Counted from the first letter of the stretch, positions 3,991-18,578 are shown. The stretch is DNA of 64,000 nucleotides from an uncultured Chloroflexia bacterium (GCA_963767165.1 CAVYCV010000003.1:986509-1050508); one strand, 5' to 3'. Numbers and translations are program-made. Notes: generated by a model not told the origin, from the letters alone.

Positions 3991-4510
3991 TCCGCCCCGC
4001 CATCGTCGGGCTGGGTCTGGCGTGGCTCGCTCGACCCGCTCCCGGCCCGGTCGGCGACGACCTGCATGGCCCGTCCCACCTCGGCGAGCTGTCCGTCGTC
4101 GAGGACCTCGAGGAAGTGGTCGGCGATGCCGCGCAGGTGCGTGGACGACGCCGCGCGCAGCCGGGCCAGGCCGGACTCGGTCAGGACCGCCTCCGCGCCG
4201 CGAGCGTCGGTCACGCAGGTGTCACGCGCGACGAGGCCGTCCGCGACCAGTCGATCGATGAGACGCGTCACGCCGCTCTTGCTGAGCAGCACCTGGTCGG
4301 CGAGCTGGCGCATCCGGACCCGGCGTCCCGGCGACGTGGCGATGGTCAGAAGGGCGTCGTACTCGGCGAACGAGAGGTCGTGCTCCGCGCGCAATTCGTC
4401 ATCGAGCCGGCGCGAGACCCGGGCGTGCGCCAGCATGAACGCTCGCCACGGGGCGAGGCGCGGGTCGTGGGCCGTCAGTGGCCGAGTGGCTGGGCGGGAA
4501 ACAACCATCG
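3978..4510 (-). CDS. MarR family transcriptional regulator
   Basis: C-terminal ~177 aa of ORF 3978..5216, initiating at 'MVVSRPAT'. Winged-HTH MarR motif 'LSFAEYDALLTI...VRMRQLADQVLLSKSGVTRLIDRLVADGLVAR'. The 5' part of the long ORF is an out-of-frame overlap with the neighbouring dehydrogenase gene. Confidence 0.8.
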
Positions 4511-4579: not shown

Positions 4580-5752
4580 TCAGGCCGTGACGCGGTAGAC
4601 CGTGCCGCCCAGGGAGACCATGAACAGCTCGCCGTTGTCGCCCTCGCCGAACGAGCTGATGTTCTGTGCCGTGTCCCGGAGCAGCGTCTTCGTCGCCGGG
4701 GTCTTGGCGCCGCGCGGGATCGACCAGATCTTGCCCGAGCAGAAGTCCGCGAAGATGTACTTGCCGACGAGCGGCGCCGACGGGCCGCGATAGACGTAGC
4801 CGCCGGTCACGGAGCAGTTGCCGCCACGACGTGGCCGTATTCCACGACCGGAACCACCTTGCCGCTCTTGTTGCAGCCGCTCGACGGCCGGTAGCAGTGC
4901 CGGCCCTCCACGACGCGCCAGCCGAAGTTGGAGCCGCGAGCGGCGGGGCCGCCCGTCGAGGTGACCTGCTTGCGGTTGATCTCCTCGTACCGGTTCTGGC
5001 CGACGTCGCCGATCCAGAGGTCGCCGCGGGTGCGATCGAACGAGAACTTCCACGGGTTGCGCAGGCCGTACGACCAGATCTCGTTGCGTCCAGCTCTCCC
5101 GACGAAGGGATTCGAGGCCGGGATCCTGTACTGGCGCGAGCCCATGGTGCCGTTGATGTTGATCCGCAGGATCTTGCCGAGCAGCCGGTTCTTGTTCTGC
5201 GCGTTGTTGGGCGCATCGCCGCTACCGCCGCCGTCGCCTGACGCCGATGTACAGGTAGCCGTCCGGGCCGAAGGCGAGCATGCCGCCGTTGTGGTTGCTG
5301 TTCGCGCTGTGCTCGATCGTCAGGATCCGCCGGCGGCTGGCCATGTCGGTGCGGTTGGGATTCGTCGTCGAGGCCTTGTACTCGTTGATCGCGATGTCGC
5401 CGCCCTTGCGCGTGAAGTAGACATAGAACTTGCGGTTCGTCTCGTAGTTCGGGTGGAACGCCAGGCCCAGCAGGCCCCGCTCGCCGCCCGAGGCGATCGA
5501 GCCGCTGATGTTGAGGAACGTCCCGAGCGAGGCGCCGGCCTGGGTGTAGGCCTTGATCCGCCCGCCCTGCTCGACGACGAACAGCCGGTTCGTGCCGTCT
5601 CGCGCGCCGGTGACGAAGACCGGGCTCGACAGGCCCGTGATGACCTCCGGCAGGCTGAGCGCGCTCGCGGGCGCCGGCGGCACCATCAGGGCAAGCGCGG
5701 CCAGAAGGGCGAGTGCGGCGCCGCGCGTCCGCCGGCGCGCGCTCAGCGCCAA
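4580..5752 (-). pseudogene. PQQ-dependent sugar dehydrogenase paralog, disrupted by two compensating ±1 frameshifts (pseudogene or assembly indels)
   Basis: The gene is split across three reading frames. The N-terminal part (frame of 5222..5815) has a signal peptide with AxA site, 'VVEQGGRI' and 'HNGGMLAFGPDGYLYIGV'. Frame switches at ~5225 and ~4815. The middle part (frame of 4807..5145) continues 'GDGGGSGD...LGKILRI...GLRNPWKFSFD', and the C-terminal part (4580..5053) has 'TGGYVYRG...IFADFCSGKIW'. Probable TTG start at 5750-5752. Confidence 0.75.
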
Positions 5753-6072
5753 CTCTCCGGGTCGAGCAGGAAGAACGTGGTCTGGCTGAGGTTCGCGGTC
5801 AACGAGTCCCACCACTCGACGAGTCGATCGTCGAAGGAACGCCCCACGAGATCCTCGGCGACGGGGCGTCGCTCGGATCCGGGGCTGGGCGCGAACGCAC
5901 TCATGAAGGAGCCTGGTGCGCCCGCTCGGCGAGGATGGGCTTCGCGGATCTGGGCCATCGCGGCGTAGCCTGACACGCGCACAGGGTAACCGCTACTGCC
6001 AAACGCACGCCACCCTGCGGCTCGGTCGGGTCACGCCTCCAGGGCCGGACAGGGGCCGGTATCCTCCTCGCC

Positions 6073-6940
6073 ATGAAGACGACGACGCGGCCCTTCGGCG
6101 GCCAGAGCATGTCCGCCCCGCTCCTCGATGTCCTCGTCAAGCGACCGGGGGCAGCGTTCGCGGCGGCGTTCGACGATCCCGACCATGGCTTCTTCCACGC
6201 GCCGGACCTCGACGTCGCCCAACGCGAGCACGACGTCTTCGCCGACACGCTCGCGCGCCTGGGCGCCACCGTCCACGTCCTGGAGACCGAGACCGAGAGC
6301 CCGGATCTCGTCTACACGTTCGACCCGCTGCTGGTGACGGATCGGGGGGCGATCCCGCTCCGGCCGGGGAAGGCGAATCGACTCGGCGAGCCCGCGGCGA
6401 TCGAGGCGTGGACGACGGCTGCCGGGATCCCGACGGTGGGCCGGATCGAGGCGCCCGGGACCGCCGAGGGCGGCGACACCCTCTGGCTCCGACCCGACCT
6501 GTTCTGCATCGGGCGATCGCTGCGGACCAATGACGCCGGGGCGCGGCAGCTCGCCGAGCTCGTGGGCGGTGACGTCCGGATCTTCGACGTCCCGTACTGG
6601 CGCGGGCCCGTCCAAGCTGGTCCACCTCATGTCGGTCATCTCGCCCATCGCAGACGACCTCGCGGTCGTCTACCTGCCGCTGCTGCCGGTCGGTCTCTGG
6701 GCGCTGCTCGGCGAACTCGGCATCCGGCTCGTCGAGGTGACCGACGAGGAGTACTGGACGCTCGGGTGCAACGTGCTCGCGGTCCGCCCGGGCGTGGTGA
6801 TCATCGCCGAGGGCAACCCGGTGGTCGCCGCGGCACTCGCCGCAGCCGGCTGCGAGGTCCACACCTACCCGGCCACCGAGATCGGCCTCAACGGCTCCGG
6901 CGGGCCGACCTGCATGGCGCGACCCATCCTTCGTGGTTGA
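6073..6940 (+). CDS. amidinotransferase/DDAH (dimethylarginine dimethylaminohydrolase)-like protein, one frameshift near 6605
   Basis: The N-terminal 180 aa (6073.. frame) are in family through 'DVPYWRGP'. The remainder is in frame 6530..6940 ('LVHLMSVISP...GGPTCMARPILRG', matching the family C-terminal catalytic Cys region). Confidence 0.7.
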
Positions 6941-8203
6941 GCCGCGGGCCGTGCCGCCCGTGACGCCCGTGATCGACCGGGCGCGCCTGGTCGAGGACCT
7001 GCGGACGCTCGTCGCGGTCCCGAGCGTCACCGGTTCCGAGGAGGCGGTCGCCGCCACGGCCGCGGATCTCCTCCGCGGGGTCGGCCTGGCGGTCGAGGTC
7101 GTCTCGCCCGACCCGGCCGCGGTCCGTGCCGACCCCGATTGGCCCGGGGAGGAGATGCCCCGGACCGCGCTGCCGGTCGTGATCGGGCGGGCCGGGCGGC
7201 CAGGGGGCCGGCGGATCATCCTGTCGGGTCATCTCGATGTCGTGCCTCCCGGCGATCCCGCCACGTGGACCGCCGATCCGTGGGGCGGGGAGATCCGAGG
7301 CGGCGCGCTCTTCGGCCGGGGTGCGTGCGACATGAAGGGCGGGGTCGCGGCGATCCTGGGCGCAGTCCGCGCGCTCGAGGCCTCGGGCGACCTCGACCGG
7401 CTGGATGGCGAGCTGATCGTCGCGCTCGTGCCGTCGGAGGAGGACGGCGGCCAGGGCACGCTCGCCGCGATCCGGGCCGGGGTGACCGGCGACCTCGCGA
7501 TCATCCCCGAGCCGTCAAACCTCGACATCGTCGTGGCGCACGCCGGCGCGATCACGTTCCGGTTGACCGTTCCGGGTCGCGCGGCCCATGCATCGCAGCG
7601 TCGCGAGGGCATCTCCGCCCTCGACAAGCTGTGGGTCCTCTCGAAGGCGCTGGAGGCGGACGAGACGCGTCGCAACGCCGCCGAGACCGACCCGCTGATG
7701 ACGGCCCTCGGGCTGCCGTACCCGACGATCATCGGGATCGTGTCGGGCGGGGAGTGGGCCTCGACCGTGCTCGACCGGGTCACCGCCGACGGCCGATATG
7801 GCGTGCGGCTCGGGCAGTCGGCTGCCGAGGCGGAGGCCGAGCTGCGCGCGGCGATCGCCGCGGCCTGCGCCGCCGACGACTTCCTGCGCGAGCATCCGGC
7901 GCGACGGTCGAGATCACCGGTGGCCGGTTCGGCTCGGCGCGCGTGGCGTCGGACCACCCGCTGCCGGTCGGCCTCGCGAACGTCGCCGAGAGCGTCACGG
8001 GACGCAGCCCAGCGCTGCTCGGCGAGCCGTACGGCGCCGACATGCAGATGTTCGTCAACGTCGGCGCGACGCCGTGCGTCATCTTCGGCCCGGGCGACGT
8101 GAAGGTTGCCCACAGCGCCGACGAGCATGTCCCGCTCGACGAGGTCGAGACCTGTGCGCGCGTGCTCGCGGCCTGGGTCCAGGCGGAGCTGATCGAGGCC
8201 TGA
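6933..8203 (+). CDS. M20 family metallopeptidase (ArgE/DapE-type deacylase), one frameshift near 7895
   Basis: M20 metal-binding motifs 'GHLDVVPPGD' and 'GRGACDMKGG' are present in frame 6933... The C-terminal dimerisation/catalytic part ('GADMQMFVNVGATPCVIFGPGDVKVAHSADEHVPL') is in frame 7139..8203. This gene overlaps the end of the DDAH-like gene by 8 nt. Confidence 0.75.
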
Positions 8204-8258
8204 CCGCCGCGCCATTTTCACCCCTTGACGCGACCGCGACCCGTGCGACGCTGGGGGC

Positions 8259-9323
8259 GTGAGGAAGATCACCGAGAAGACGCCCAAACGCGTCGTCGCC
8301 TGGTCCGGACATCCGGAGGAACGGATCCTCGGGATGGCCGAGGTCGCCGCACGGTTCGGGGTCACCCGCCAACGGGTCGGCCAGATCGCCAGGGCCGACC
8401 GGACGTTCCCGCGGCCGGGCCTGAACGACGGAGCCGGCGCGGCCTGGCTCGCCGCAGGCATCGAGGGCTGGGCGGCTGCGCACCGGCCGACGGCCGACAC
8501 CGGCCGCTTCGGGCCTGAGGTCGCAGCGCTCATCATCCACGCCGAGTCCATCGCCGGGCAGGTGGGTCACCCGTACGTCTCGAGCGTCCACGTCTGGCAC
8601 GCGCTGGCATCGGGCGTCGGCGGGACGGCGCTCGCAGATGCGATCCGCTCGATGGGTCTCGATCCGGCGACGATCGACGAGTGGTTCCGACGCGTCGATC
8701 CCGGGCTGGGCGCAAGCCGATCGAGACGGATGACGCCCGCCACACAGGACCGCCTGGAAGCGGCGGACAAGGTCGTCCGGACGGCGGGCCGGACGACCGT
8801 CCTTCCCACCGACGTCGCACTCGCCTTCGTGGATTCGCATCGATACCGCTGGGGCTCCGACGACCACCTGATCGCCTGCGGAGAGCGTCGCGGTCTCGAC
8901 ACGGCCGAACTCCGGCGCCGGATCACGGTCGTCGCCGCCGACCCCGATGCGCTCGTCGACTTCCCGTCCACGCCGCTCCCGAAGCGTCGGCCGCCGCGCC
9001 GCGGGGCAAGGAGGCCCACGTGGCTGGACCTCGCGCCGAACCCGCTCGGCCACGACCCGTGGGTACGCCGTCCGTGGGGCGCCGGCTTCGCGGTCACCCG
9101 CGAAGGGAAGCACCTCACCTTCGAGGACAGGCACTGGTTCTTCTTCATCGACGCCGACGGCTACTACGTCCGTGCGGCGGACGGGCGCCCGGTGGGTTAT
9201 CGATATCGCGTGCTCCACAAGATGCCCAAGCGGCTGCCGGGCCGGCCGAAGATGGAGATCCTGCCGATGCCGCCATTCCCGCTTCGGGACTGGCCGGACC
9301 GGCGCTACGTCCGCGAGGACTGA
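8259..9323 (+). CDS. HTH (excisionase/MerR-like) DNA-binding domain fused to Clp N-terminal domain repeats; uncharacterised C-terminal region
   Basis: GTG start. 'ILGMAEVAARFGVTRQRVGQIARADRTFPRP...WLAAGIEGW' resembles Xis/AlpA-type HTH. It is followed by two Clp_N-like repeats ('HPYVSSVHVWHALAS', 'TPATQDRLEAADKVVRTAGRTTVLPTDVALAFV'). The C-terminal 'HWFFFIDADGYYVRAADGRPVGYRYRVLH' is not recognised. Confidence 0.55.
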   Translation: MRKITEKTPKRVVAWSGHPEERILGMAEVAARFGVTRQRVGQIARADRTFPRPGLNDGAGAAWLAAGIEGWAAAHRPTADTGRFGPEVAALIIHAESIAGQVGHPYVSSVHVWHALASGVGGTALADAIRSMGLDPATIDEWFRRVDPGLGASRSRRMTPATQDRLEAADKVVRTAGRTTVLPTDVALAFVDSHRYRWGSDDHLIACGERRGLDTAELRRRITVVAADPDALVDFPSTPLPKRRPPRRGARRPTWLDLAPNPLGHDPWVRRPWGAGFAVTREGKHLTFEDRHWFFFIDADGYYVRAADGRPVGYRYRVLHKMPKRLPGRPKMEILPMPPFPLRDWPDRRYVRED

Positions 9324-10564
9324 GCGACGCCCCGTCGCGCGAGCGTGAGCGTGAGCGGGACGACGATCATCGCCGCGCCGATGAGGCCGAGGACCGCGAA
9401 CCCTGCGACGGCCATGATCACGCCCGAGCCGATGCTCGCTGCGGCGGCCGAGCTCCAGATCATGGCGTCCGTCACGCCCTGGAGTCGGGTGCGCTCGCCG
9501 AGCGACAGGCCTGTGGTCAGCAGGGCGGATCCGGCCACGTAGCCCAGGTTCCATCCGTACCCGAGCAGGAACAGCGCGACGAACAGCAGCACGCCGCCCT
9601 CGGGCGGCGCGGCCGCGGCCAGGACCGACGACCCGGCGATGACCATGAGCCCGGCGAGGATGACGGGCACGCTCCCGACCCGGTCGGTCAGCCGTCCGGA
9701 CAGCGGCGACAGGCCGAACATCCCGAACGTGTGACCGCTGATGACGATGCCCACCGCGCCCAGCGTGTGGCCGTGCTCGGTCATGTGGAGCGGCGTCATC
9801 GTCATGATCAGGACCATGACCACCTGGCCGGTCACGAGCGCCACGATCGCGACCGGGACGTGCGGCCGCCGGAGGACCGATCGAAGCGACACGGCGATCG
9901 ACGCATCGGCCGCCGGATCGGTCCGGGACGTCTCGTCGGCGAGCGCGTACGGATCGGGTCGCAGGAGCGTCCAGGACAGGATCGCCGCCGCACCGACGAA
10001 GATGATCGGGACGAAGTAGGGCCCCGCGAGCTCGGGCATGCCCAGGTTCGTCGCGAGGATCCCGGCCGGTGCGACGAGGTTCGGTCCGACGATGGCGCCG
10101 ACCGTGGCGCCCCAGACCACGAGGCCGATGGCCGAGGCGCGTCGCGCATCCGGGTACAGGTCCGCGGCCACGTATCGCGACAGTTGGTTGGACGAGTTGC
10201 CGAACCCGATGAAGAACATCCCGACGAGGAGCAGCGGCAACGAAGACACGAGGATCGCGGCGGTCGCAAGGATCGCGCCGCCGACGCCTGTGGCATAGCC
10301 AGCGGCCAGGCCGGGCCGACGCCCGCGGCGGACCATGAGCGCGGAGATCAGGACGGCACCACCGGCTGCCCCGAGGATGACTGCGGCGCCCGTGACGCCA
10401 CTCCACAGCGCCGAGCCCCCGAGGTGCTGGGCCACGATGGCAGCGACGGTGACCGCCGCGATGTGCCCGGTGCTGCCGAGCGCAACGCCGGCGACGAGCG
10501 TCCAGGTCGAGCGTCGTCGCGCGGCATCCATCCGAGCGGGCGAGAGCGTCGAGGCGACGTCCAT
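9305..10564 (-). CDS. MFS transporter
   Basis: 419-aa intact ORF with about 12 predicted TM helices, a Gly-rich MFS-like motif and 'GRLTDRVG'. It is convergent with the preceding gene and overlaps it by 19 nt. Confidence 0.85.
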   Translation of the reverse strand: MDVASTLSPARMDAARRRSTWTLVAGVALGSTGHIAAVTVAAIVAQHLGGSALWSGVTGAAVILGAAGGAVLISALMVRRGRRPGLAAGYATGVGGAILATAAILVSSLPLLLVGMFFIGFGNSSNQLSRYVAADLYPDARRASAIGLVVWGATVGAIVGPNLVAPAGILATNLGMPELAGPYFVPIIFVGAAAILSWTLLRPDPYALADETSRTDPAADASIAVSLRSVLRRPHVPVAIVALVTGQVVMVLIMTMTPLHMTEHGHTLGAVGIVISGHTFGMFGLSPLSGRLTDRVGSVPVILAGLMVIAGSSVLAAAAPPEGGVLLFVALFLLGYGWNLGYVAGSALLTTGLSLGERTRLQGVTDAMIWSSAAAASIGSGVIMAVAGFAVLGLIGAAMIVVPLTLTLARRGVAQSSRT

Positions 10565-10588
10565 GGGCGCCGATGATAGGCGCGCCGC

Positions 10589-13500
10589 TCAGTCCAGACC
10601 GAGCGTCAGCACCTCGATGCGCGGCGCGACCGGGTCCGCCGGAGGCGGCGTTACCGCGGCCATCTCCAGAAAGCGACAGAACGCGTTCGCCAACCGCATC
10701 TGCGCCGGATTCCGGGCGCGGACCCGCCACAGGTCGGGCGACCCGACCACCAGCGCCACGCATCGGGCCCGCGAGGTCGCGACGTTGAGTCTGTTCCGGC
10801 TGTAGAGGAAGTCCATCCCGCGCGGCGCGAGCTCCGGGCTCGACGTCGTCAGCGAGTAGATGCTGATCGGCGCCTCCTGGCCCTGGAACTTGTCGACGGT
10901 GCCGACCCGCGCCTCCGCGGGCAGCAGGCGCTTGATCGCCCCGACCTGCGCGTTGTATGGCGCGACGATGAGCACGTCGTCCCATCCGAGCGGTCGCGTG
11001 ACGCCATGGCGGTCCATCCATCGCGAGCCGCCGGCGGTCAGGGACCGGGCGATCGCCGCGACCCGTTCCGCCTCGACCGTCGACTCACTGTCGGCGCCGT
11101 CGGTGACGACCTCGATCAGGCGCGGTCCGACGCCGTCGAGGTCGGCCACGGTCGAGTCGAGCCGCTGGATCACGAGATGCGGTTCGGACTCCAGGCGGTC
11201 GTCGTAGAAGACCTCGGACGTGAAGGCGCACAGGGCCGGGTGCATCCGCCACGTGTGCTCGAGGAAGAGGCCACGTTCGGGTGGCATCGTCGCCCGACCG
11301 TCGAGGACGTGGGCCAGGGCCGATCGATCCGCGCCCGCGGGATGGGTTCCCTTGAGTGGCTGGTCGAGCTGTTGCGGGTCGCCAAGCAGGACGAGGTTCG
11401 CGGTCGCCCGGGCCATCGCGATGACGTTCGCGAGCGAGATCTGCCCCGCCTCGTCGACGAACAGCACGTGGACGGCGTCCGCCATCTTCGTCGACACCCA
11501 CAGCCATGCCGTGCCGGCCGCGAGGTTGGCCCGGCCGTCATCGAGACGCGACCGGACGTCCGAGGCGTCCTTCGCGTGCGCGACCGACGGATGATCGACC
11601 ACCTGGTCCTTCGGCCCGTGCTGGATGGCACGGACGTTACCGGGATCGCTGGCCTCGATCACCTCGCGGAGGAGATTGCCGATCACCTTGTGACTCGTGG
11701 CACTGATCCCCACGCGCTTGCCCGCGCGCAGGAGCGACACGATCATGCGGGCCCCGGTGTACGTCTTGCCGGCGTCCGGGTGGTCCCTGGATCGCGAGGG
11801 TGGTCGAGTCGAGCCGACCGGCCAGGCGGATCGCGGCTGCCTCGAGGTCCGCGTCTTCGGGGTCGACCAGCGGGCTGCCGGGCGCCTGCCCGACCCGTGG
11901 CGGGCGCCCGAGCAGTAGCTCCCTGGCGAGCCGGTGCGGGCCGTCGGCGTCGATGCCATGCTCGGCGACCCACTCGCCGAGCTCGAACAGTGACGCCTGA
12001 TGATCGACGGTCCGGACCCAGTCGAGGGCCACGACCGAGCGCGGGTGCGGCTTCTCGACCTCGCGGCGGATGTCGATCGTCAGACCCGCGAGGTCGACGG
12101 CGACCATCTTGCCCGTGTCCCACTCGAACGGGCTGACGCCGGGTGCGGCTTGACTGAGGGCGGGATCGAACAGCTCCCCACGCCCGAGGTCGAAGTCCTG
12201 GTCCGGGAAGGAGTACCGCCATGTCTGCTTGCCCCTCACGGGTTCGTCGAGCGGACCGATCGGCTCGAGCCCGCCAAGCGGCACGTTCTCCTCGATCGCC
12301 TGATCCTCGTCGAGTCCCATGTGGCGAAAGAAGTCCCACCACATCGCCTTGTCCTCGCGACGGTGCCAGCCAAGGAGCTGCGCCAGCAGCCAGCGGCCGT
12401 GCTGTTCGGGGTTTCGGTCGGCGGCGTCCGTCGGGACGATCTCCGGATCGGCCAGGCGGTCGGCGAGCGCCTGGATCCGCGCCTGCGCGTCGGTGACGTC
12501 CTCCGGCAGCGCCTGACGCTCGCCCGGGCGCGGGACCGGTCGGCCGGTCGCCTCGGCCAGCTCGCCACGCAGTGCCTCGAGCCAGTCGCGGAGCTGGCGG
12601 TTGCTGATGACGTCATCGCGGTTGTAGCGCTCGATGCGATCGAGGATCGTCGAGTCCGGACGCTCTCCCTCGCCGAGCTCCAGCCACTCCTCGAACGCGA
12701 CGATGCTCGATCCCGCGTCTCGAAGATCGACCTCGCGCGTGAACCCGTAGAACGCCTCCATCTTCTTGATCGAGTAGCTCTCGACCGAAGCCCGCAACGA
12801 CTGGCGCACGGCCCGCAGGAGGTCGACCAGCGTGCCGGCCCGCAGCAGGTCGTCGACCTCGTTCTCGCGGGTGCCATACCGACCCATGAGGCGCTTGAGC
12901 GCGGTCGGCTCGTACGGGGCGTAGTGGTAGATGTGCAGGTTCGGGTCCGCCCGGATCCGCTCGCCGATGAAGTCCATCACCGCCTCGAACGCGCGACGTT
13001 CGCCATCCAGGCTGAACTCGCCAGCCTCGTCGCGCGACCAGAACGCGTGAAACGTGCCGTCGACCTCGAGGATGCCGAACAGGTAGTCGAGGCCGTCGTC
13101 GAAGGCGTATGGGTCGCCCTCGAGATCGAGGAACAGGTCGCCCGGCGACGGCGGCGGGAGCGAGGCCAGGCCACGTTCCTGGCCGATCGGGTCCTCGCCC
13201 TGCGGAAGCAGGAGCTCGTAGCGGCCGGCCCCGGTGCGACGCCCCTCGAGCTGGATCCGCGCCTGCTCCCGGACCCGCAGGAGCGCCTCCTTGCTCGTCC
13301 CTTCGAGCTTCGGATCCATGGGCAGCGGCAGGTCGCCGAGCGCCTCGAGAGTCGGGCACGCCGCGGTCGATCAGGGCCCGTCGCTGGCGGGCCGAGATCC
13401 CGGCGACGAGGCTGAGGTGGTCGTCCGATCGTCGACGGGCGACGCACTCGGCTGCCCACCGGCAGACATCGCAATGCTCGACAGGTTCGGGATAGGTGGT

Positions 13501-14164
13501 CGCCGGCGGGTAGGTCGCGGCCACCTCGTCGGTCATGGTGGCGAGGAAGCGGGTTTTCGCGCTGCGGTAGTACGCCATGTAGTCGTCGACACGGAGCCGC
13601 TCGACCGCTCGGGCGCTGCCCCCCAACGCCACATGCATCCACTCCGGGCGGACACCCTGGATGAGCTCGAGCTGATCGACGTAGCTGCAGATCTGGAGGA
13701 CCGCGCTCGCCTTGACGTGTCGGGCGAGCTTGGTGTCCGCGACCTCGTAGTGCCACGGCCCCCAGACCGATGGACGTTCCGGGTCGTGAGACGCGCAGAA
13801 GGAAGTCCGCATGCCCGCGCCAGGTGCCGTCGAAGAACGTGGCCTGGAAGATGACGTCGTCGCCCCTGGCCATCGCGTCGATCGTCTCGTCCGCCGCGGC
13901 GCGGAGCTGGTCGCCCTGGTCCGCGATCGATCCGTCGAGCGTGATCGTGGTCGACGTCCGGCCGTCCGCCAGCAGGTCCGCGAGGAAGCGCCGCTCGTGC
14001 TCGAAGCCGCGCTTGCGGATGATGTCGAGCTCCGGGTCGTCGCGCATCGGTCGCTTGACCAGGCCAGCCAGCGCGGCCCGCTCGAGCTGGGTCAGGTGCT
14101 CACAGGCGAGGTAGGCGACGAGATCGGTGGCGGCGTAGACCGGTCGGCCGTCGATGGTCTGCAC
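10589..14164 (-). pseudogene. TM0106-family RecB-like (Cas4-type PD-(D/E)xK) nuclease fused to Superfamily-1 (Upf1/DNA2-like) helicase, ~1190 aa, interrupted by three frameshifts
   Basis: The gene is split across four frames. Frame 12977..14164 has the N-terminal nuclease ('ATDLVAYLACEHLTQLE...GHADFLLRV'). Frame 12613..13812 continues 'WHYEVADTKLARHVKASAVLQICSYV...CDVCRW'. Frame 11637..13319 carries the long linker ending 'LAIQGPPG'. Frame 10589..11959 carries the helicase Walker A and C-terminal domain ('GKTYTGARMIVSLL', 'VLFVDEAGQ', 'VDKFQGQEAPISIY', 'NRLNVATSRAR'). Frame switches occur at about 13790, 13320 and 11795. Confidence 0.8.
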
Positions 14165-14226
14165 GCCTGCACCTTACCGGCTGGCCGTGTCAGGTCGCCT
14201 GTCGCGAGGAGCGATACGCTTCGGCC

Positions 14227-14700
14227 ATGCCGGTCGAGCGACGAAACAGCGACGGATCGCGCCAGGTCGGCGCCGTCGTGGGAGAGCCTCGTCGAGCGCC
14301 AGATCCGCGAGGCGATGGAGGAGGGCGCGTTCAGCGACCTGCCGTTCCAGGGCCAGCCGCTGCCGATCGAGGATGACGCGGCCGCCGGGGAGTGGGCGAT
14401 GGCCCACCGGATCCTGCGCAACGCCGGCGCCGCCCCGCCGTGGATCGAGGCGGACAAGGAGGTCCGCCGGCTGCTCGCCCGTCGCGACGAGCTGGTCTCG
14501 CGGCCGCGTCGGACGACGCCGTCCGGGCAAGCGCGCGAACGGACCGAGCTGACCACCCTGGTCGCGTCGATCAACGAGGCGATCGCCCGGGTCAACGCCG
14601 AGGCGCCTACGATCCGCCAGCATCGTCGCGCCCTCGATCTCGAGACCGAGCTGGCGCGCCTCGACGCAGGCACGGCCGGACTAGGCACGCGCCCCCGGGA
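14227..14700 (+). CDS. DUF1992 (DnaJ-subfamily C28-like) domain protein; boundaries uncertain
   Basis: DUF1992 signature 'WESLVERQIREAMEEGAFSDLPFQGQPLPIED...WAMAHRILRNAGAAPPWIE' lies inside ORF 13811..15178. The nearest ATG (14227) is in another frame and there is no in-frame stop before the downstream VOC gene, so an indel at either end is suspected. Confidence 0.45.
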
Positions 14701-15178: not shown

Positions 15179-15204
15179 GCGCGGGTCCCACCTAAGATTG
15201 CGAC

Positions 15205-17604
<2,400 letters not shown>

Positions 17605-17714
17605 CCGCGGCGCGGACAGCGTGAAGAGAGTCCTCACATGTGCCGTCACTGGACCCGACTCGTCGAGGGGCCGGTCGATCTCGCCGTGGTCGCCCGACGT
17701 GCCACAATCTCGCA

Positions 17715-18165
17715 CGTGACCATCAGATCCGCCCCGACGCAGAACCTGAGCGACCTCGCGTGGCTGCGCCGCGTCCGCGACCGGATCGACCGGGAGTACG
17801 AGCAGCCGCTGGACGTCGAGGCTCTCGCGCGCGGCGCACACATGTCGGCCGGGCACCTCAGCCGCGAGTTCAAGCTCGCCTACGGCGAGTCGCCGTACAG
17901 CTACCTGATGACGCGGCGCATCGAGCGCGCGATGGCCCTGCTCCGGCGCGGCGACATGAGCGTCACCGAGGTCTGTTTCGCCGTCGGCTGCTCGTCGTTG
18001 GGCACGTTCAGCACCCGCTTCACCGAGCTGGTCGGCGTGCCGCCGAGCGTCTATCGGCGTGACGGTGCCCGTGTGACGACGGGGATGCCGGCGTGCATCG
18101 CGAAACAGGTGACCAGACCGATCAGGAATTGGGAAGCGCCGATCGCGGAGCCTCGAACAGCGTGA
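17715..18165 (+). CDS. AraC family transcriptional regulator (HTH_18)
   Basis: AraC-type HTH 'LDVEALARGAHMSAGHLSREFKLAYGESPYSYLMTRRIERAMALL...SVTEVCFAVGCSSLGTFSTRF'. The ORF opens at 17638 (ATG); a GTG at 17715 is an alternative start. Confidence 0.7.
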
Positions 18166-18170
18166 CCAAG

Positions 18171-18578
18171 ATGAGCATCACCATCCACACGAGCGTTCTC
18201 CCGCACGACGACCCGGACGCGTCCCTGGCCTTCTATCGCGACACCCTTGGCTTCGAGGTTCGGAACGATGTCGGCAGCGGCAAGATGCGCTGGATCGAGG
18301 TCGGCCCCGTCGACCAGCCCGGTACGTCGATCCTCCTCGCGCCGCCGGCCGCCGACCCCGGCATCACCGAGGACGAGCGCCGCACCATCGCCGAGATGAT
18401 GGCCAAGGGCACCTACGGCTGGATCCTTCTGGCCACGCCCGACCTCGACGGCGTCTTCGAGCGAGTGCAGGCGATCGCAGAGGTCGTCCAGGAGCCCGCC
18501 GAGCAGCCCTACGGCGTTCGCGACTGTGCCGTCCGCGATCCCGCGGGCAACCTGATCCGCATCAAGGAGCTTCGCTGA
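18171..18578 (+). CDS. VOC family (glyoxalase-like) protein
   Basis: The 'MSITIHTSVLPHDDPDASLAFYRDTLGFEV...' start lies within ORF 18093..18578. It has VOC-fold hallmarks, and the C-terminus 'RDPAGNLIRIKE' is typical. Confidence 0.75.
   Translation: MSITIHTSVLPHDDPDASLAFYRDTLGFEVRNDVGSGKMRWIEVGPVDQPGTSILLAPPAADPGITEDERRTIAEMMAKGTYGWILLATPDLDGVFERVQAIAEVVQEPAEQPYGVRDCAVRDPAGNLIRIKELR

Follow-up and report, generated by a model that had tools for sequence, protein, structure and literature searches.

Several proteins that carry a nuclease and a helicase on one polypeptide have been described. Bad of Geobacillus stearothermophilus, studied by Dillingham and colleagues, shows 5'-3' translocation, a preference for 5' flaps and nuclease activity; its central domain is reported to be without recognisable homology, its gene lies beside one for a Type III-like methyltransferase, and no cellular role has been established for the protein (PMC7430649). 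COG2251 proteins, which join PF13482 to a DUF83-like PD-(D/E)xK nuclease and tandem AAA domains, are uncharacterised, and a 3'-5' exonuclease activity is presumed for them (Majorek et al. 2014). Mycobacterial ClpC2 is a Clp_N-like auto-repressor that is off DNA in the presence of cyclomarin A, rufomycin or phosphoarginine (PMC10030653, PMC13345244). Here we analyse positions 8259-14164 of a 64,000-nucleotide stretch of DNA from an uncultured Chloroflexia bacterium (GCA_963767165.1 CAVYCV010000003.1:986509-1050508; hereafter the window), which hold three genes, encoding a helix-turn-helix (HTH)-Clp_N protein on the plus strand, and a major facilitator superfamily (MFS) transporter and a nuclease-helicase on the minus strand. 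An earlier account made from the DNA alone (the sequence-only reading) suggested that the HTH-Clp_N protein could be a regulator or sensor of a neighbouring nuclease-helicase. Our analysis makes it likely instead that the span contains three separately evolving genes and no two-gene system, the HTH-Clp_N gene being a rare accessory insert and the helicase an intact core enzyme.

Distribution of the HTH-Clp_N and nuclease-helicase genes

Genes were called by third-position GC; the window has ~71% G+C, and raw lists of open reading frames (ORFs) were uninformative. Throughout, L numbers denote comparison loci or contigs and P numbers public protein records. The 354-aa HTH-Clp_N gene was found where it had been read, at 8259-9323 on the plus strand with a GTG start, and is identical to the public gene call P0001. 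It does not stand next to the helicase gene as had been thought, because a 419-aa MFS gene (9305-10564, minus strand; Pfam MFS_1, 3.7e-34), which the sequence-only reading had passed over, lies between the two. The 3' ends of the HTH-Clp_N and MFS genes overlap by 19 nt, tail to tail, so that these genes are convergent. The nuclease-helicase gene (10589-14164, minus strand) runs from a GTG at 14164 to a stop at 10589-10591 and encodes 1190 aa once three inserted bases are removed. The MFS gene begins 24 nt downstream of this stop in the same orientation, and the two genes probably share a transcript; the MFS gene is intact, its product is 70-72% identical to the L003 and L004 orthologues, and it follows the helicase gene in many Limnocylindria loci, not all. 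The wider block, in the order DJC28-like gene, helicase, MFS, HTH-Clp_N where present, M20 peptidase and arginine-deiminase-like (ADI) gene, is collinear in relatives.

Co-occurrence was counted in two samples. Relatives of the helicase were sought with one genome per species, giving at least 595 matches, and the best 80 loci, 63 of which have at least 3 kb downstream, were used for anchoring. Only one of these 80 helicase-anchored species genomes, on the L001 contig, carries an HTH-Clp_N homologue. The independent sample comprised 80 metagenomic loci found by the M20 peptidase protein and thus anchored on neither gene. The helicase was present in all 20 of these loci with at least 3 kb downstream, and the HTH-Clp_N gene in 2 of the 39 with at least 1.2 kb downstream.

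HTH-Clp_N orthologues of at least 46% identity (L001-L004 and the error-ridden L008) all sit in the block ADI - M20 - [HTH-Clp_N] -> <- MFS <- helicase, surrounded by long collinear housekeeping flanks. The close relative L016, whose helicase, MFS and M20 are 84-86% identical to those of L003, cleanly lacks the gene: here MFS abuts M20 with a 6-bp spacer. MFS also abuts M20 in L009, L010 and L058, and in L011, L012 and L071 the helicase abuts M20 directly. More distant homologues are found elsewhere, P0070 (40% identity) among acyl-CoA carboxylase and HMG-lyase genes and the P0080 branch (31% identity) beside integrase and transposase genes, in both cases with no helicase nearby. Moreover, the HTH-Clp_N gene occurs with both of the helicase types described below, with type A in L003 and with type B in L002, and its product evolves much faster, being 46-48% identical to the L003 and L004 proteins versus 72% for the helicase.

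These data bear on the proposal that the HTH-Clp_N protein regulates, or senses for, the nuclease-helicase and that both form a two-gene phage-defence system. The proposal can draw on the distance of no more than 1.3 kb between the genes in the window, L001, L002, L003, L004 and L008, and on the frequent association of defence nuclease-helicases with DNA-binding regulators, such as WYL beside plasmid-borne TM0106 genes; yet 79 of the 80 genomes anchored on the helicase and 37 of the 39 loci anchored on M20 lack the HTH-Clp_N gene, with the helicase present throughout, the genes are convergent with MFS between them, and no PADLOC match puts either protein in a known system. We regard the two-gene system as extremely improbable, and its distribution has already largely refuted it.

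Promoter-like element upstream of the HTH-Clp_N gene

A promoter-like element precedes the HTH-Clp_N gene at 8216-8252 (plus strand). It consists of TTTCACCCC-TTGACG followed by TGC-GACGCT, with the -35-like TTGACG at 8225-8230 and the extended -10-like TGC-GACGCT at 8244-8252. Although the encoded proteins share only 46-85% identity, 24 of its 37 positions are invariant in the five orthologous loci compared, and the conserved upstream element reads TTTCACCCCTTGAC-N13-GTGCGACGCT. The start codon follows the -10-like element after ~7 nt, across loci with proteins only 46% identical, and because of this spacing we infer that the HTH-Clp_N gene is transcribed independently from a promoter of its own, probably as a leaderless transcript. 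The TTTCACCCC stretch 5' of the -35-like hexamer could be an operator candidate. The motif TTCACCCCTTGAC is unique in the window; nothing within 3 mismatches of it was found upstream of the helicase gene, and the upstream regions of the HTH-Clp_N and helicase genes share no conserved palindromes.

Since the HTH-Clp_N gene is present in only 2 of 39 M20-anchored loci and 1 of 80 helicase-anchored genomes, appears to have its own promoter and is convergently placed, its co-location with the helicase gene is best explained by a chromosomal block that a minority of genomes share by descent, and not by functional pairing. Linkage across genomes is thus confined to a minority of Limnocylindria and to a collinear housekeeping block, and the role of the HTH-Clp_N protein as a regulator of the helicase is not supported by these comparisons. 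A lineage-specific link between the two genes is unlikely rather than impossible.

Two helicase types at one chromosomal slot

In Limnocylindria the slot always holds a helicase, which is of one of two deeply diverged types that are only 46% identical, that of the window being type A. Both types are full length, and the catalytic residues are kept in the type-B sequence of our alignment. When 24 loci with a complete M20 gene and a helicase of at least 900 aa were compared pairwise, helicase identity was bimodal (143 pairs at 40-50% and 82 pairs at 65-85%) and M20 identity unimodal, the correlation between the two being r = 0.17. In 31 pairs, M20 was at least 78% identical yet the helicase less than 55%, as in L169/L170 (M20 85% versus helicase 46%) and L154/L010 (86% versus 46%). 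Between L169 and L170 the flanks on both sides are 80-82% identical at the nucleotide level; within the helicase gene this similarity breaks down, chiefly over the 5' two-thirds. Within one type, the helicase is conserved at 69-84%, like the flanking enzymes.

Single-gene neighbour-joining trees, built from metagenomic contigs, gave a corresponding picture: type B groups apart from type A on a rough family tree of the helicase, and on the M20 tree loci of both types are interspersed. The two-type pattern suggests that alleles or xenologues have replaced one another repeatedly at a fixed locus, as is seen more often with conflict genes than with ordinary housekeeping genes. We also noted that the helicase of L082, a contig binned as Steroidobacteraceae, falls inside the Limnocylindria type-B clade, which may reflect a mis-binned short contig or a recent transfer.

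Domains and catalytic residues of the nuclease-helicase

The minus-strand protein of ~1190 aa described from the DNA is real and can be read across three frame changes. It matches TIGR03491 (TM0106 family RecB-like putative nuclease) with 263 bits against a cut-off of 97.45, over aa 11-528. Its N-terminal module is a predicted Fe-S PD-(D/E)xK nuclease (~aa 1-270, nt ~13353-14164), followed by an RNase_H_2 exonuclease domain (PF13482, 3.4e-22; aa 343-528, nt ~12579-13136), an unassigned middle region (aa 530-780) and a superfamily 1B (SF1B) helicase core (aa 783-1142, nt ~10736-11816), in which Pfam reports AAA_12 (1.7e-24), AAA_11 (6.3e-12) and also AAA_30; all of these lie on the minus strand. 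Searched against the PDB, the family profile returned SF1B helicase cores only, namely Upf1, IGHMBP2, Sen1 and DNA2 (5eax, 1.3e-13). The sequence-only reading was therefore right to assign the protein to the TM0106 family, with a Cas4-like Fe-S nuclease and a Upf1/DNA2-like SF1B helicase. It recognised two of the catalytic modules; the third, the RNase_H_2 / PolB-like 3'-5' exonuclease at aa 343-528, went unnamed.

Alignment with intact orthologues of 1190-1199 aa runs end to end at 72-80% identity and is gap-free at the junctions; the truncated type-B helicase sequence of L002 aligns at 46% identity. Invariant in the orthologues are D120, K145, C231/C234/C240, D346/E348, Y513/D517, GPPGxGKT at 793-800 and DEAGQ at 903-907, and C21 and E140 are at least 90% conserved. 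D120, E140 and K145 correspond to the PD-(D/E)xK residues, and D346/E348 and Y513/D517 to those of a DEDD-type exonuclease. The cysteines, which include the motifs 'YLACEH' and 'CDVCRW' noticed earlier, follow the conserved Cas4-type pattern, with C21 ... C231-X2-C234-X5-C240 in the spacing of Cas4, AddB and Dna2. As judged from these alignments, the window helicase is a full-length TM0106/COG2251 member that keeps all catalytic motifs.

The most similar described enzymes differ in their central part. Bad and Dna2 share the module order, with an N-terminal four-Cys Fe-S RecB-family nuclease, a central region and a C-terminal SF1B helicase. Bad, compared here by description, is 1245 aa long against 1190 aa for the window protein, and both are sporadically distributed; where Bad has a central domain without homology, the window protein has a recognisable RNase_H_2 / PolB-like exonuclease. 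Dna2 is without an exonuclease module, the match of the window family profile to DNA2 lying in the helicase core. Nhi, the nuclease-helicase immunity protein of staphylococci, is likewise a single polypeptide with a nuclease and an SF1 helicase, but to our knowledge has no RNase-H-like module. With TM0106/TIGR03491/COG2251 itself there is structurally no difference, the window protein being a direct member, and public orthologues as well as plasmid homologues carry the PGAP name 'TM0106 family RecB-like putative nuclease'. A literature search on 'TM0106' found nothing on the nuclease-helicase family and returned papers on a corrosion standard only. The TM0106/COG2251 family is without a studied member or an assigned function, and the window helicase is a new member of this known but unstudied family.

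Frame breaks in the nuclease-helicase gene

The deposited sequence does contain the three frameshifts reported earlier in the helicase gene, all of them +1 insertions relative to the nearest relative. The first, one extra base in the nuclease domain (…LLRV/HDPERPS…), lies at 13786-13790 (~13788), as located by three-frame reading, comparison with L029 and L001 and a tblastn switch at 13781/13782. The second is an extra C in a CCC run (…IDRGV/PTLEALG…) at 13352-13356 (~13354), and the third an extra base within the Walker A codons (GPPG-A-GKT) at 11772-11776 (~11774); both were placed by reading frames, relatives and tblastn, and all three are on the minus strand.

Neighbouring genes share this defect. 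Compared with the intact L003 proteins, the ADI, M20 and GSDH-paralogue genes also switch frame, giving 7 breaks in ~8 kb of coding sequence; within window positions 4589-8203, the switches were observed at ~6606 in the ADI-like gene, ~7902 in M20 and ~4826 and 5243 in the GSDH paralogue. Over 20 kb the window is collinear with L001 at 86-91% nucleotide identity, but the two differ by 64 indels whose length is not divisible by three, most of them a single G or C. In L001 and L029, helicase and MFS are broken at positions other than those of the window, the helicase gene of L029 carrying +1 insertions of its own. Intact helicase genes encode 1194 aa in L003 and 1199 aa in L004. The close relatives with fragmented helicase genes (L001, L008) are ENA assemblies with 'contig_N' names, and the relatives in the species collection that bear MFD isolate names are metagenome-assembled genomes (MAGs) whose contigs are also named 'contig_N'. 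The four reading segments of the window gene show 72-80% identity, every catalytic residue, no in-frame stops and a third-position GC of 0.86-0.90 each.

Because the neighbouring genes share the defect and the closest relative is broken at other sites, the frame breaks are most likely consensus errors of long-read assembly in a gene that is really intact. Were the gene instead a true pseudogene in the window strain, the frameshifts, which do stand in the deposited sequence and of which one strikes an essential motif, would be explained, but not the like single-base indels in ADI, M20 and the GSDH paralogue, the 64 indels per 20 kb against a nearest relative itself broken elsewhere, or the retention of identity, catalytic residues and third-position GC in all four segments; we consider a pseudogene very unlikely. 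The earlier doubt about functionality, which had been drawn from the frameshifts, is thus lifted by breaks judged to be artefacts and by intact orthologues.

The HTH-Clp_N-C-terminal-domain protein

The 354-aa protein has 90 homologues, nearly all of 330-380 aa. On the plus strand, it comprises a predicted AlpA/excisionase-type winged HTH (~aa 22-76, nt 8322-8486), a double Clp_N repeat (~aa 82-230, nt 8502-8948) and an unassigned beta-rich C-terminal domain (~aa 248-354, nt 9000-9320). Clp_N is sub-threshold on the window protein alone, and was detected (E <= 0.01) in 26 of 45 family members, HTH_17 or AlpA in 10 of 45. The family profile matches structures of ClpC N-domains (1e-19) and of ClpC2 (~1e-10). 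The excisionase-type HTH, the Clp_N module and the unrecognised C-terminal domain named from the DNA are therefore borne out at the level of the family and by structure matches.

The ~105 C-terminal residues are the most conserved part of the protein (LAPNPLGHDP ... WFF.ID.DGF.VR..DGRPVGY) and match no Pfam family at or above threshold. Searched against 1.84 billion representative proteins, a profile of this domain gave only 125 matches. Of ten longer matches that were scanned, eight have Clp_N, four of these together with HTH_17 or MerR; of the other two, P0307 is an unrelated repeat protein and the second has no Pfam match. The weak matches to giant repeat proteins were set aside as compositional (D-x-D-G), P0307 consisting of MopE-type metal-binding repeats. 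Five longer relatives (P0236, P0254, P0262, P0252 and P0226; 560-870 aa) carry duplicated Clp_N/HTH_17 (or MerR) modules before the same C-terminal domain, and Clp_N plus the C-terminal domain therefore form the constant unit of the family. On plasmids and phages, no match to the 354-aa protein was found.

The architecture had been thought undescribed. For the three-domain family, which is uncharacterised, this holds, but a Clp_N-domain transcription factor was already known in mycobacterial ClpC2 (PMC10030653, PMC13345244). The 354-aa protein shares with ClpC2 a double repeat that resembles the ClpC N-domain and lacks AAA+ modules, but its family matches ClpC2 less well than ClpC N-domains (1e-19). 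ClpC2 has an N-terminal dimerisation domain of its own, where the 354-aa protein has an AlpA/excisionase-type winged HTH, and a two-domain layout of ~250 aa, to which the 354-aa protein adds the conserved C-terminal domain of ~105 aa. ClpC2 is actinobacterial (mycobacterial), whereas the host phylum of the 354-aa family here is Chloroflexota. In repeat 1, the phosphoarginine-binding Thr (T99 in Mycobacterium tuberculosis ClpC2) is replaced by G, A or P in 33 of 44 family members, and the residue equivalent to E32 varies; only in repeat 2 are T/S/N and D retained at the corresponding positions. Owing to the different N-terminal domain, the extra C-terminal domain and the replaced repeat-1 Thr, the 354-aa family is not a ClpC2 orthologue.

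We considered whether the Clp_N module binds phosphoarginine in the canonical manner, but make no firm claim of this, as the repeat-1 residues are not conserved. AlpA/excisionase regulators (HTH_17, MerR-superfamily winged helix) offer a second comparison, from which the 354-aa protein departs in being six times larger than an excisionase and in lying, in the window, without an adjoining integrase or mobile element; only the 31%-identity branch of P0080 adjoins integrase and transposase genes. By analogy, the 354-aa protein may work like ClpC2, as a ligand-responsive, autoregulated transcription factor that would contact DNA through its AlpA-type winged HTH. Ligand binding or oligomerisation would fall to the Clp_N module, possibly together with the novel C-terminal domain.

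Defence contexts of the nuclease-helicase family

The sequence-only reading also likened the protein to defence-type nuclease-helicases. Within the window this finds no echo. The neighbours of the locus (GSDH, cupin, DUF72, ADI-like, M20, MFS, DJC28-like, UvrA-like ABC ATPase, AraC and glyoxalase genes) are metabolic or repair-like, and no methyltransferase, restriction, toxin, integrase or transposase gene lies nearby. PADLOC (E <= 0.01) gave only partial matches in the C-terminal helicase core (MkoA, MkoC, DpdJ), with no model named Nhi among them, and matches to NCBIfam defence models were far below cut-off (PLuB 57 bits versus 999, ProA 20 versus 1500, Hhe 14 versus 2000). The locus is thus not a defence island by this mapping.

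Elsewhere, the contexts of the family are different. Full-length homologues lie on at least 59 plasmids, 26 of them conjugative; in phage records, no full-length TM0106 homologue was found. Plasmid p1 of Sphingobium sp. CAP-1 (L090, 5910-16068) carries a cassette in the order WYL / TM0106 - SbcD-like exonuclease - SbcC/LmuB-like ATPase - Type III-like methyltransferase (MTase_III, 1.6e-124). On an Ensifer plasmid the order is DrmD-like SNF2 - TmtA-like - TM0106, and on a Phenylobacterium plasmid TM0106 follows a ubiquitin-like E1/E2 set (multiubiquitin/E2/ThiF/DUF6527). Such TM0106 plasmid cassettes, recorded in L090, L091 and L095, are possible uncatalogued defence systems.

For chromosomes, all-against-all clustering of ORFs at the 80 helicase loci yielded mostly spurious antisense frames without Pfam matches, and nearest neighbours filtered by third-position GC were used instead. 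The 117 nearest chromosomal neighbours from 67 non-Limnocylindria loci include ZorA, SngC, DrmD, HerA, a Type I methyltransferase and GmrSD, and, among large proteins, SbcC-like ATPases (three loci), Type III Res, an Mrr-NACHT-HEAT protein and a DUF4011 Hhe-like helicase, with no family occurring more than three times. These neighbours were listed without a background control, and a family-wide enrichment of defence neighbours is suggestive only. In L035 and L041 (Vicinamibacterales) and L046 (Actinomycetes), SbcC/Rad50-like ATPases of 1100-1230 aa lie directly upstream of TM0106 on the same strand, an arrangement reminiscent of the Sphingobium plasmid cassette with its SbcC-like gene.

Hence the defence reading retains some support for the helicase alone, from its plasmid and defence contexts and the two-type locus, and lacks a full-length match to a defence model and a defence-island site in the window. 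In its strongest form it would make the nuclease-helicase by itself a dedicated anti-phage or anti-plasmid effector, Nhi-like or a restriction-like motor-nuclease as proposed for Bad, with the two types as the product of an arms race. We think this rather unlikely, though worth keeping in view. The plasmid copies and their cassettes with WYL, SbcD/SbcC-like, methyltransferase, DrmD-like and ubiquitin-like partners, the ZorA, SngC, DrmD, HerA, GmrSD and Mrr-NACHT neighbours in other phyla, the Type III-like methyltransferase that Bad too adjoins, and the bimodal, flank-independent divergence at a fixed slot, as in conflict genes, are all in keeping with it. They have to be set against the presence of the helicase in 20 of 20 M20-anchored loci, in a metabolic block without defence genes nearby, its conservation within a type at the level of the flanking enzymes (69-84%), PADLOC and NCBIfam matches that are partial and far below cut-offs, the lack of phage-encoded copies, and a neighbour list with no family above 3 of 117 and without a background comparison.

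RecBCD and AddAB are core end-processing enzymes that also meet foreign DNA. We favour a similar role for the nuclease-helicase, because it reconciles lineage fixation, the two-type locus and the defence-like contexts elsewhere: it would be a core DNA-end-processing enzyme that, like those two, also encounters and attacks foreign DNA and has to face counter-measures. Roles in defence alone or in repair alone remain live alternatives to this analogy. By analogy with Dna2 and Bad, the protein would act alone on DNA ends. Its C-terminal SF1B motor may load on a 5' single-stranded tail, move 5'->3' and feed the tracked strand to the N-terminal Fe-S PD-(D/E)xK nuclease for cutting, and the central DEDD-type RNase-H-like domain may trim 3' ends.

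Host and surrounding genes

The host is a Limnocylindria (Chloroflexota) MAG from soil. The NCBI names of close helicase orthologues and of one 354-aa homologue are 'Candidatus Limnocylindrales bacterium' and 'Chloroflexota bacterium', and the best helicase loci of the species collection are Limnocylindria/Chloroflexia MAGs; the actinobacterial setting presumed earlier is incorrect.

Upstream of the helicase gene and divergent from it lies a DJC28_CD-domain gene (14174-14685, plus strand), which is conserved at this position in L003, L004, L010, L015, L016, L018 and L025. Further on, positions 15196-18578 (plus strand) encode a UvrA-like ABC ATPase of 802 aa that includes a UvrA DNA-binding domain, together with an AraC-type regulator and a protein of the glyoxalase/bleomycin-resistance fold; this cluster is conserved in L001 and looks like a resistance module against DNA-damaging drugs. 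On the other side, at 4056-4466 (plus strand), only ~137 of the 562 residues of a DAO/FAD-oxidoreductase of L003 are detectable; the gene has either decayed to a remnant or been rearranged in comparison with L003.

Discussion

Taken together, the locus is best described as a helicase gene at a fixed slot, its probable MFS partner in transcription, and an HTH-Clp_N gene inserted in a minority of genomes. Several points weigh against this interpretation. Wherever the HTH-Clp_N gene occurs at 46% identity or more, the helicase gene is no more than 1.3 kb away, and the negative motif search upstream of the helicase is weak evidence, the operator sequence not being established. The tree evidence for two exchanged types comes from single-gene neighbour-joining trees of metagenomic contigs. 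The case for artefactual frame breaks rests on assemblies, and recent pseudogenisation in the window strain is formally possible without raw reads. For the helicase, all statements on mechanism are by homology, to a TM0106/COG2251 family without a studied member and to Bad by its description only. For the 354-aa protein, the canonical ClpC/ClpC2 phosphoarginine site in repeat 1 is not conserved, and the ClpC2 analogy is loose, since Taylor et al. assigned DNA binding in ClpC2 to the Clp_N-like domain and not to an HTH.

A bolder interpretation would take TM0106 as a conflict gene, with two ancient types that are exchanged by recombination at a fixed housekeeping slot in Limnocylindria and a role as the motor-nuclease of uncatalogued restriction-like cassettes on proteobacterial plasmids, and the HTH-Clp_N-C-terminal-domain protein as a new kind of ligand-responsive factor with a new C-terminal fold. 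We put this forward tentatively, as a possibility that is more doubtful than probable. If true, it would reveal a widespread, unrecognised class of anti-mobile-element nuclease-helicases, related in logic to Bad and Nhi.

For work on this and similar genomes, ruling out a two-gene defence module spares follow-up effort. Frame-breaking indels occur about once per kb in the window and in its sister long-read MAGs, and 'pseudogene' calls anywhere in the window are therefore suspect. What remains of interest is the biology of the TM0106 family and a rare Clp_N-based regulator, not a two-gene system at the window locus. The 354-aa family, with about 125 representative clusters, combines an excisionase-type HTH and a Clp N-domain with a domain of unassigned fold, and would extend the idea of Clp_N as a sensor module of transcription factors, known from ClpC2, beyond Actinomycetota. 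The nuclease / 3'-5' exonuclease / SF1B helicase architecture spans thousands of protein clusters; it is found in at least 595 species genomes from at least 7 phyla and on no fewer than 59 plasmids, and with cultured carriers of TM0106 such as Rhizobium, Bradyrhizobium, Sphingobium and Modestobacter, the role of this family is directly testable.

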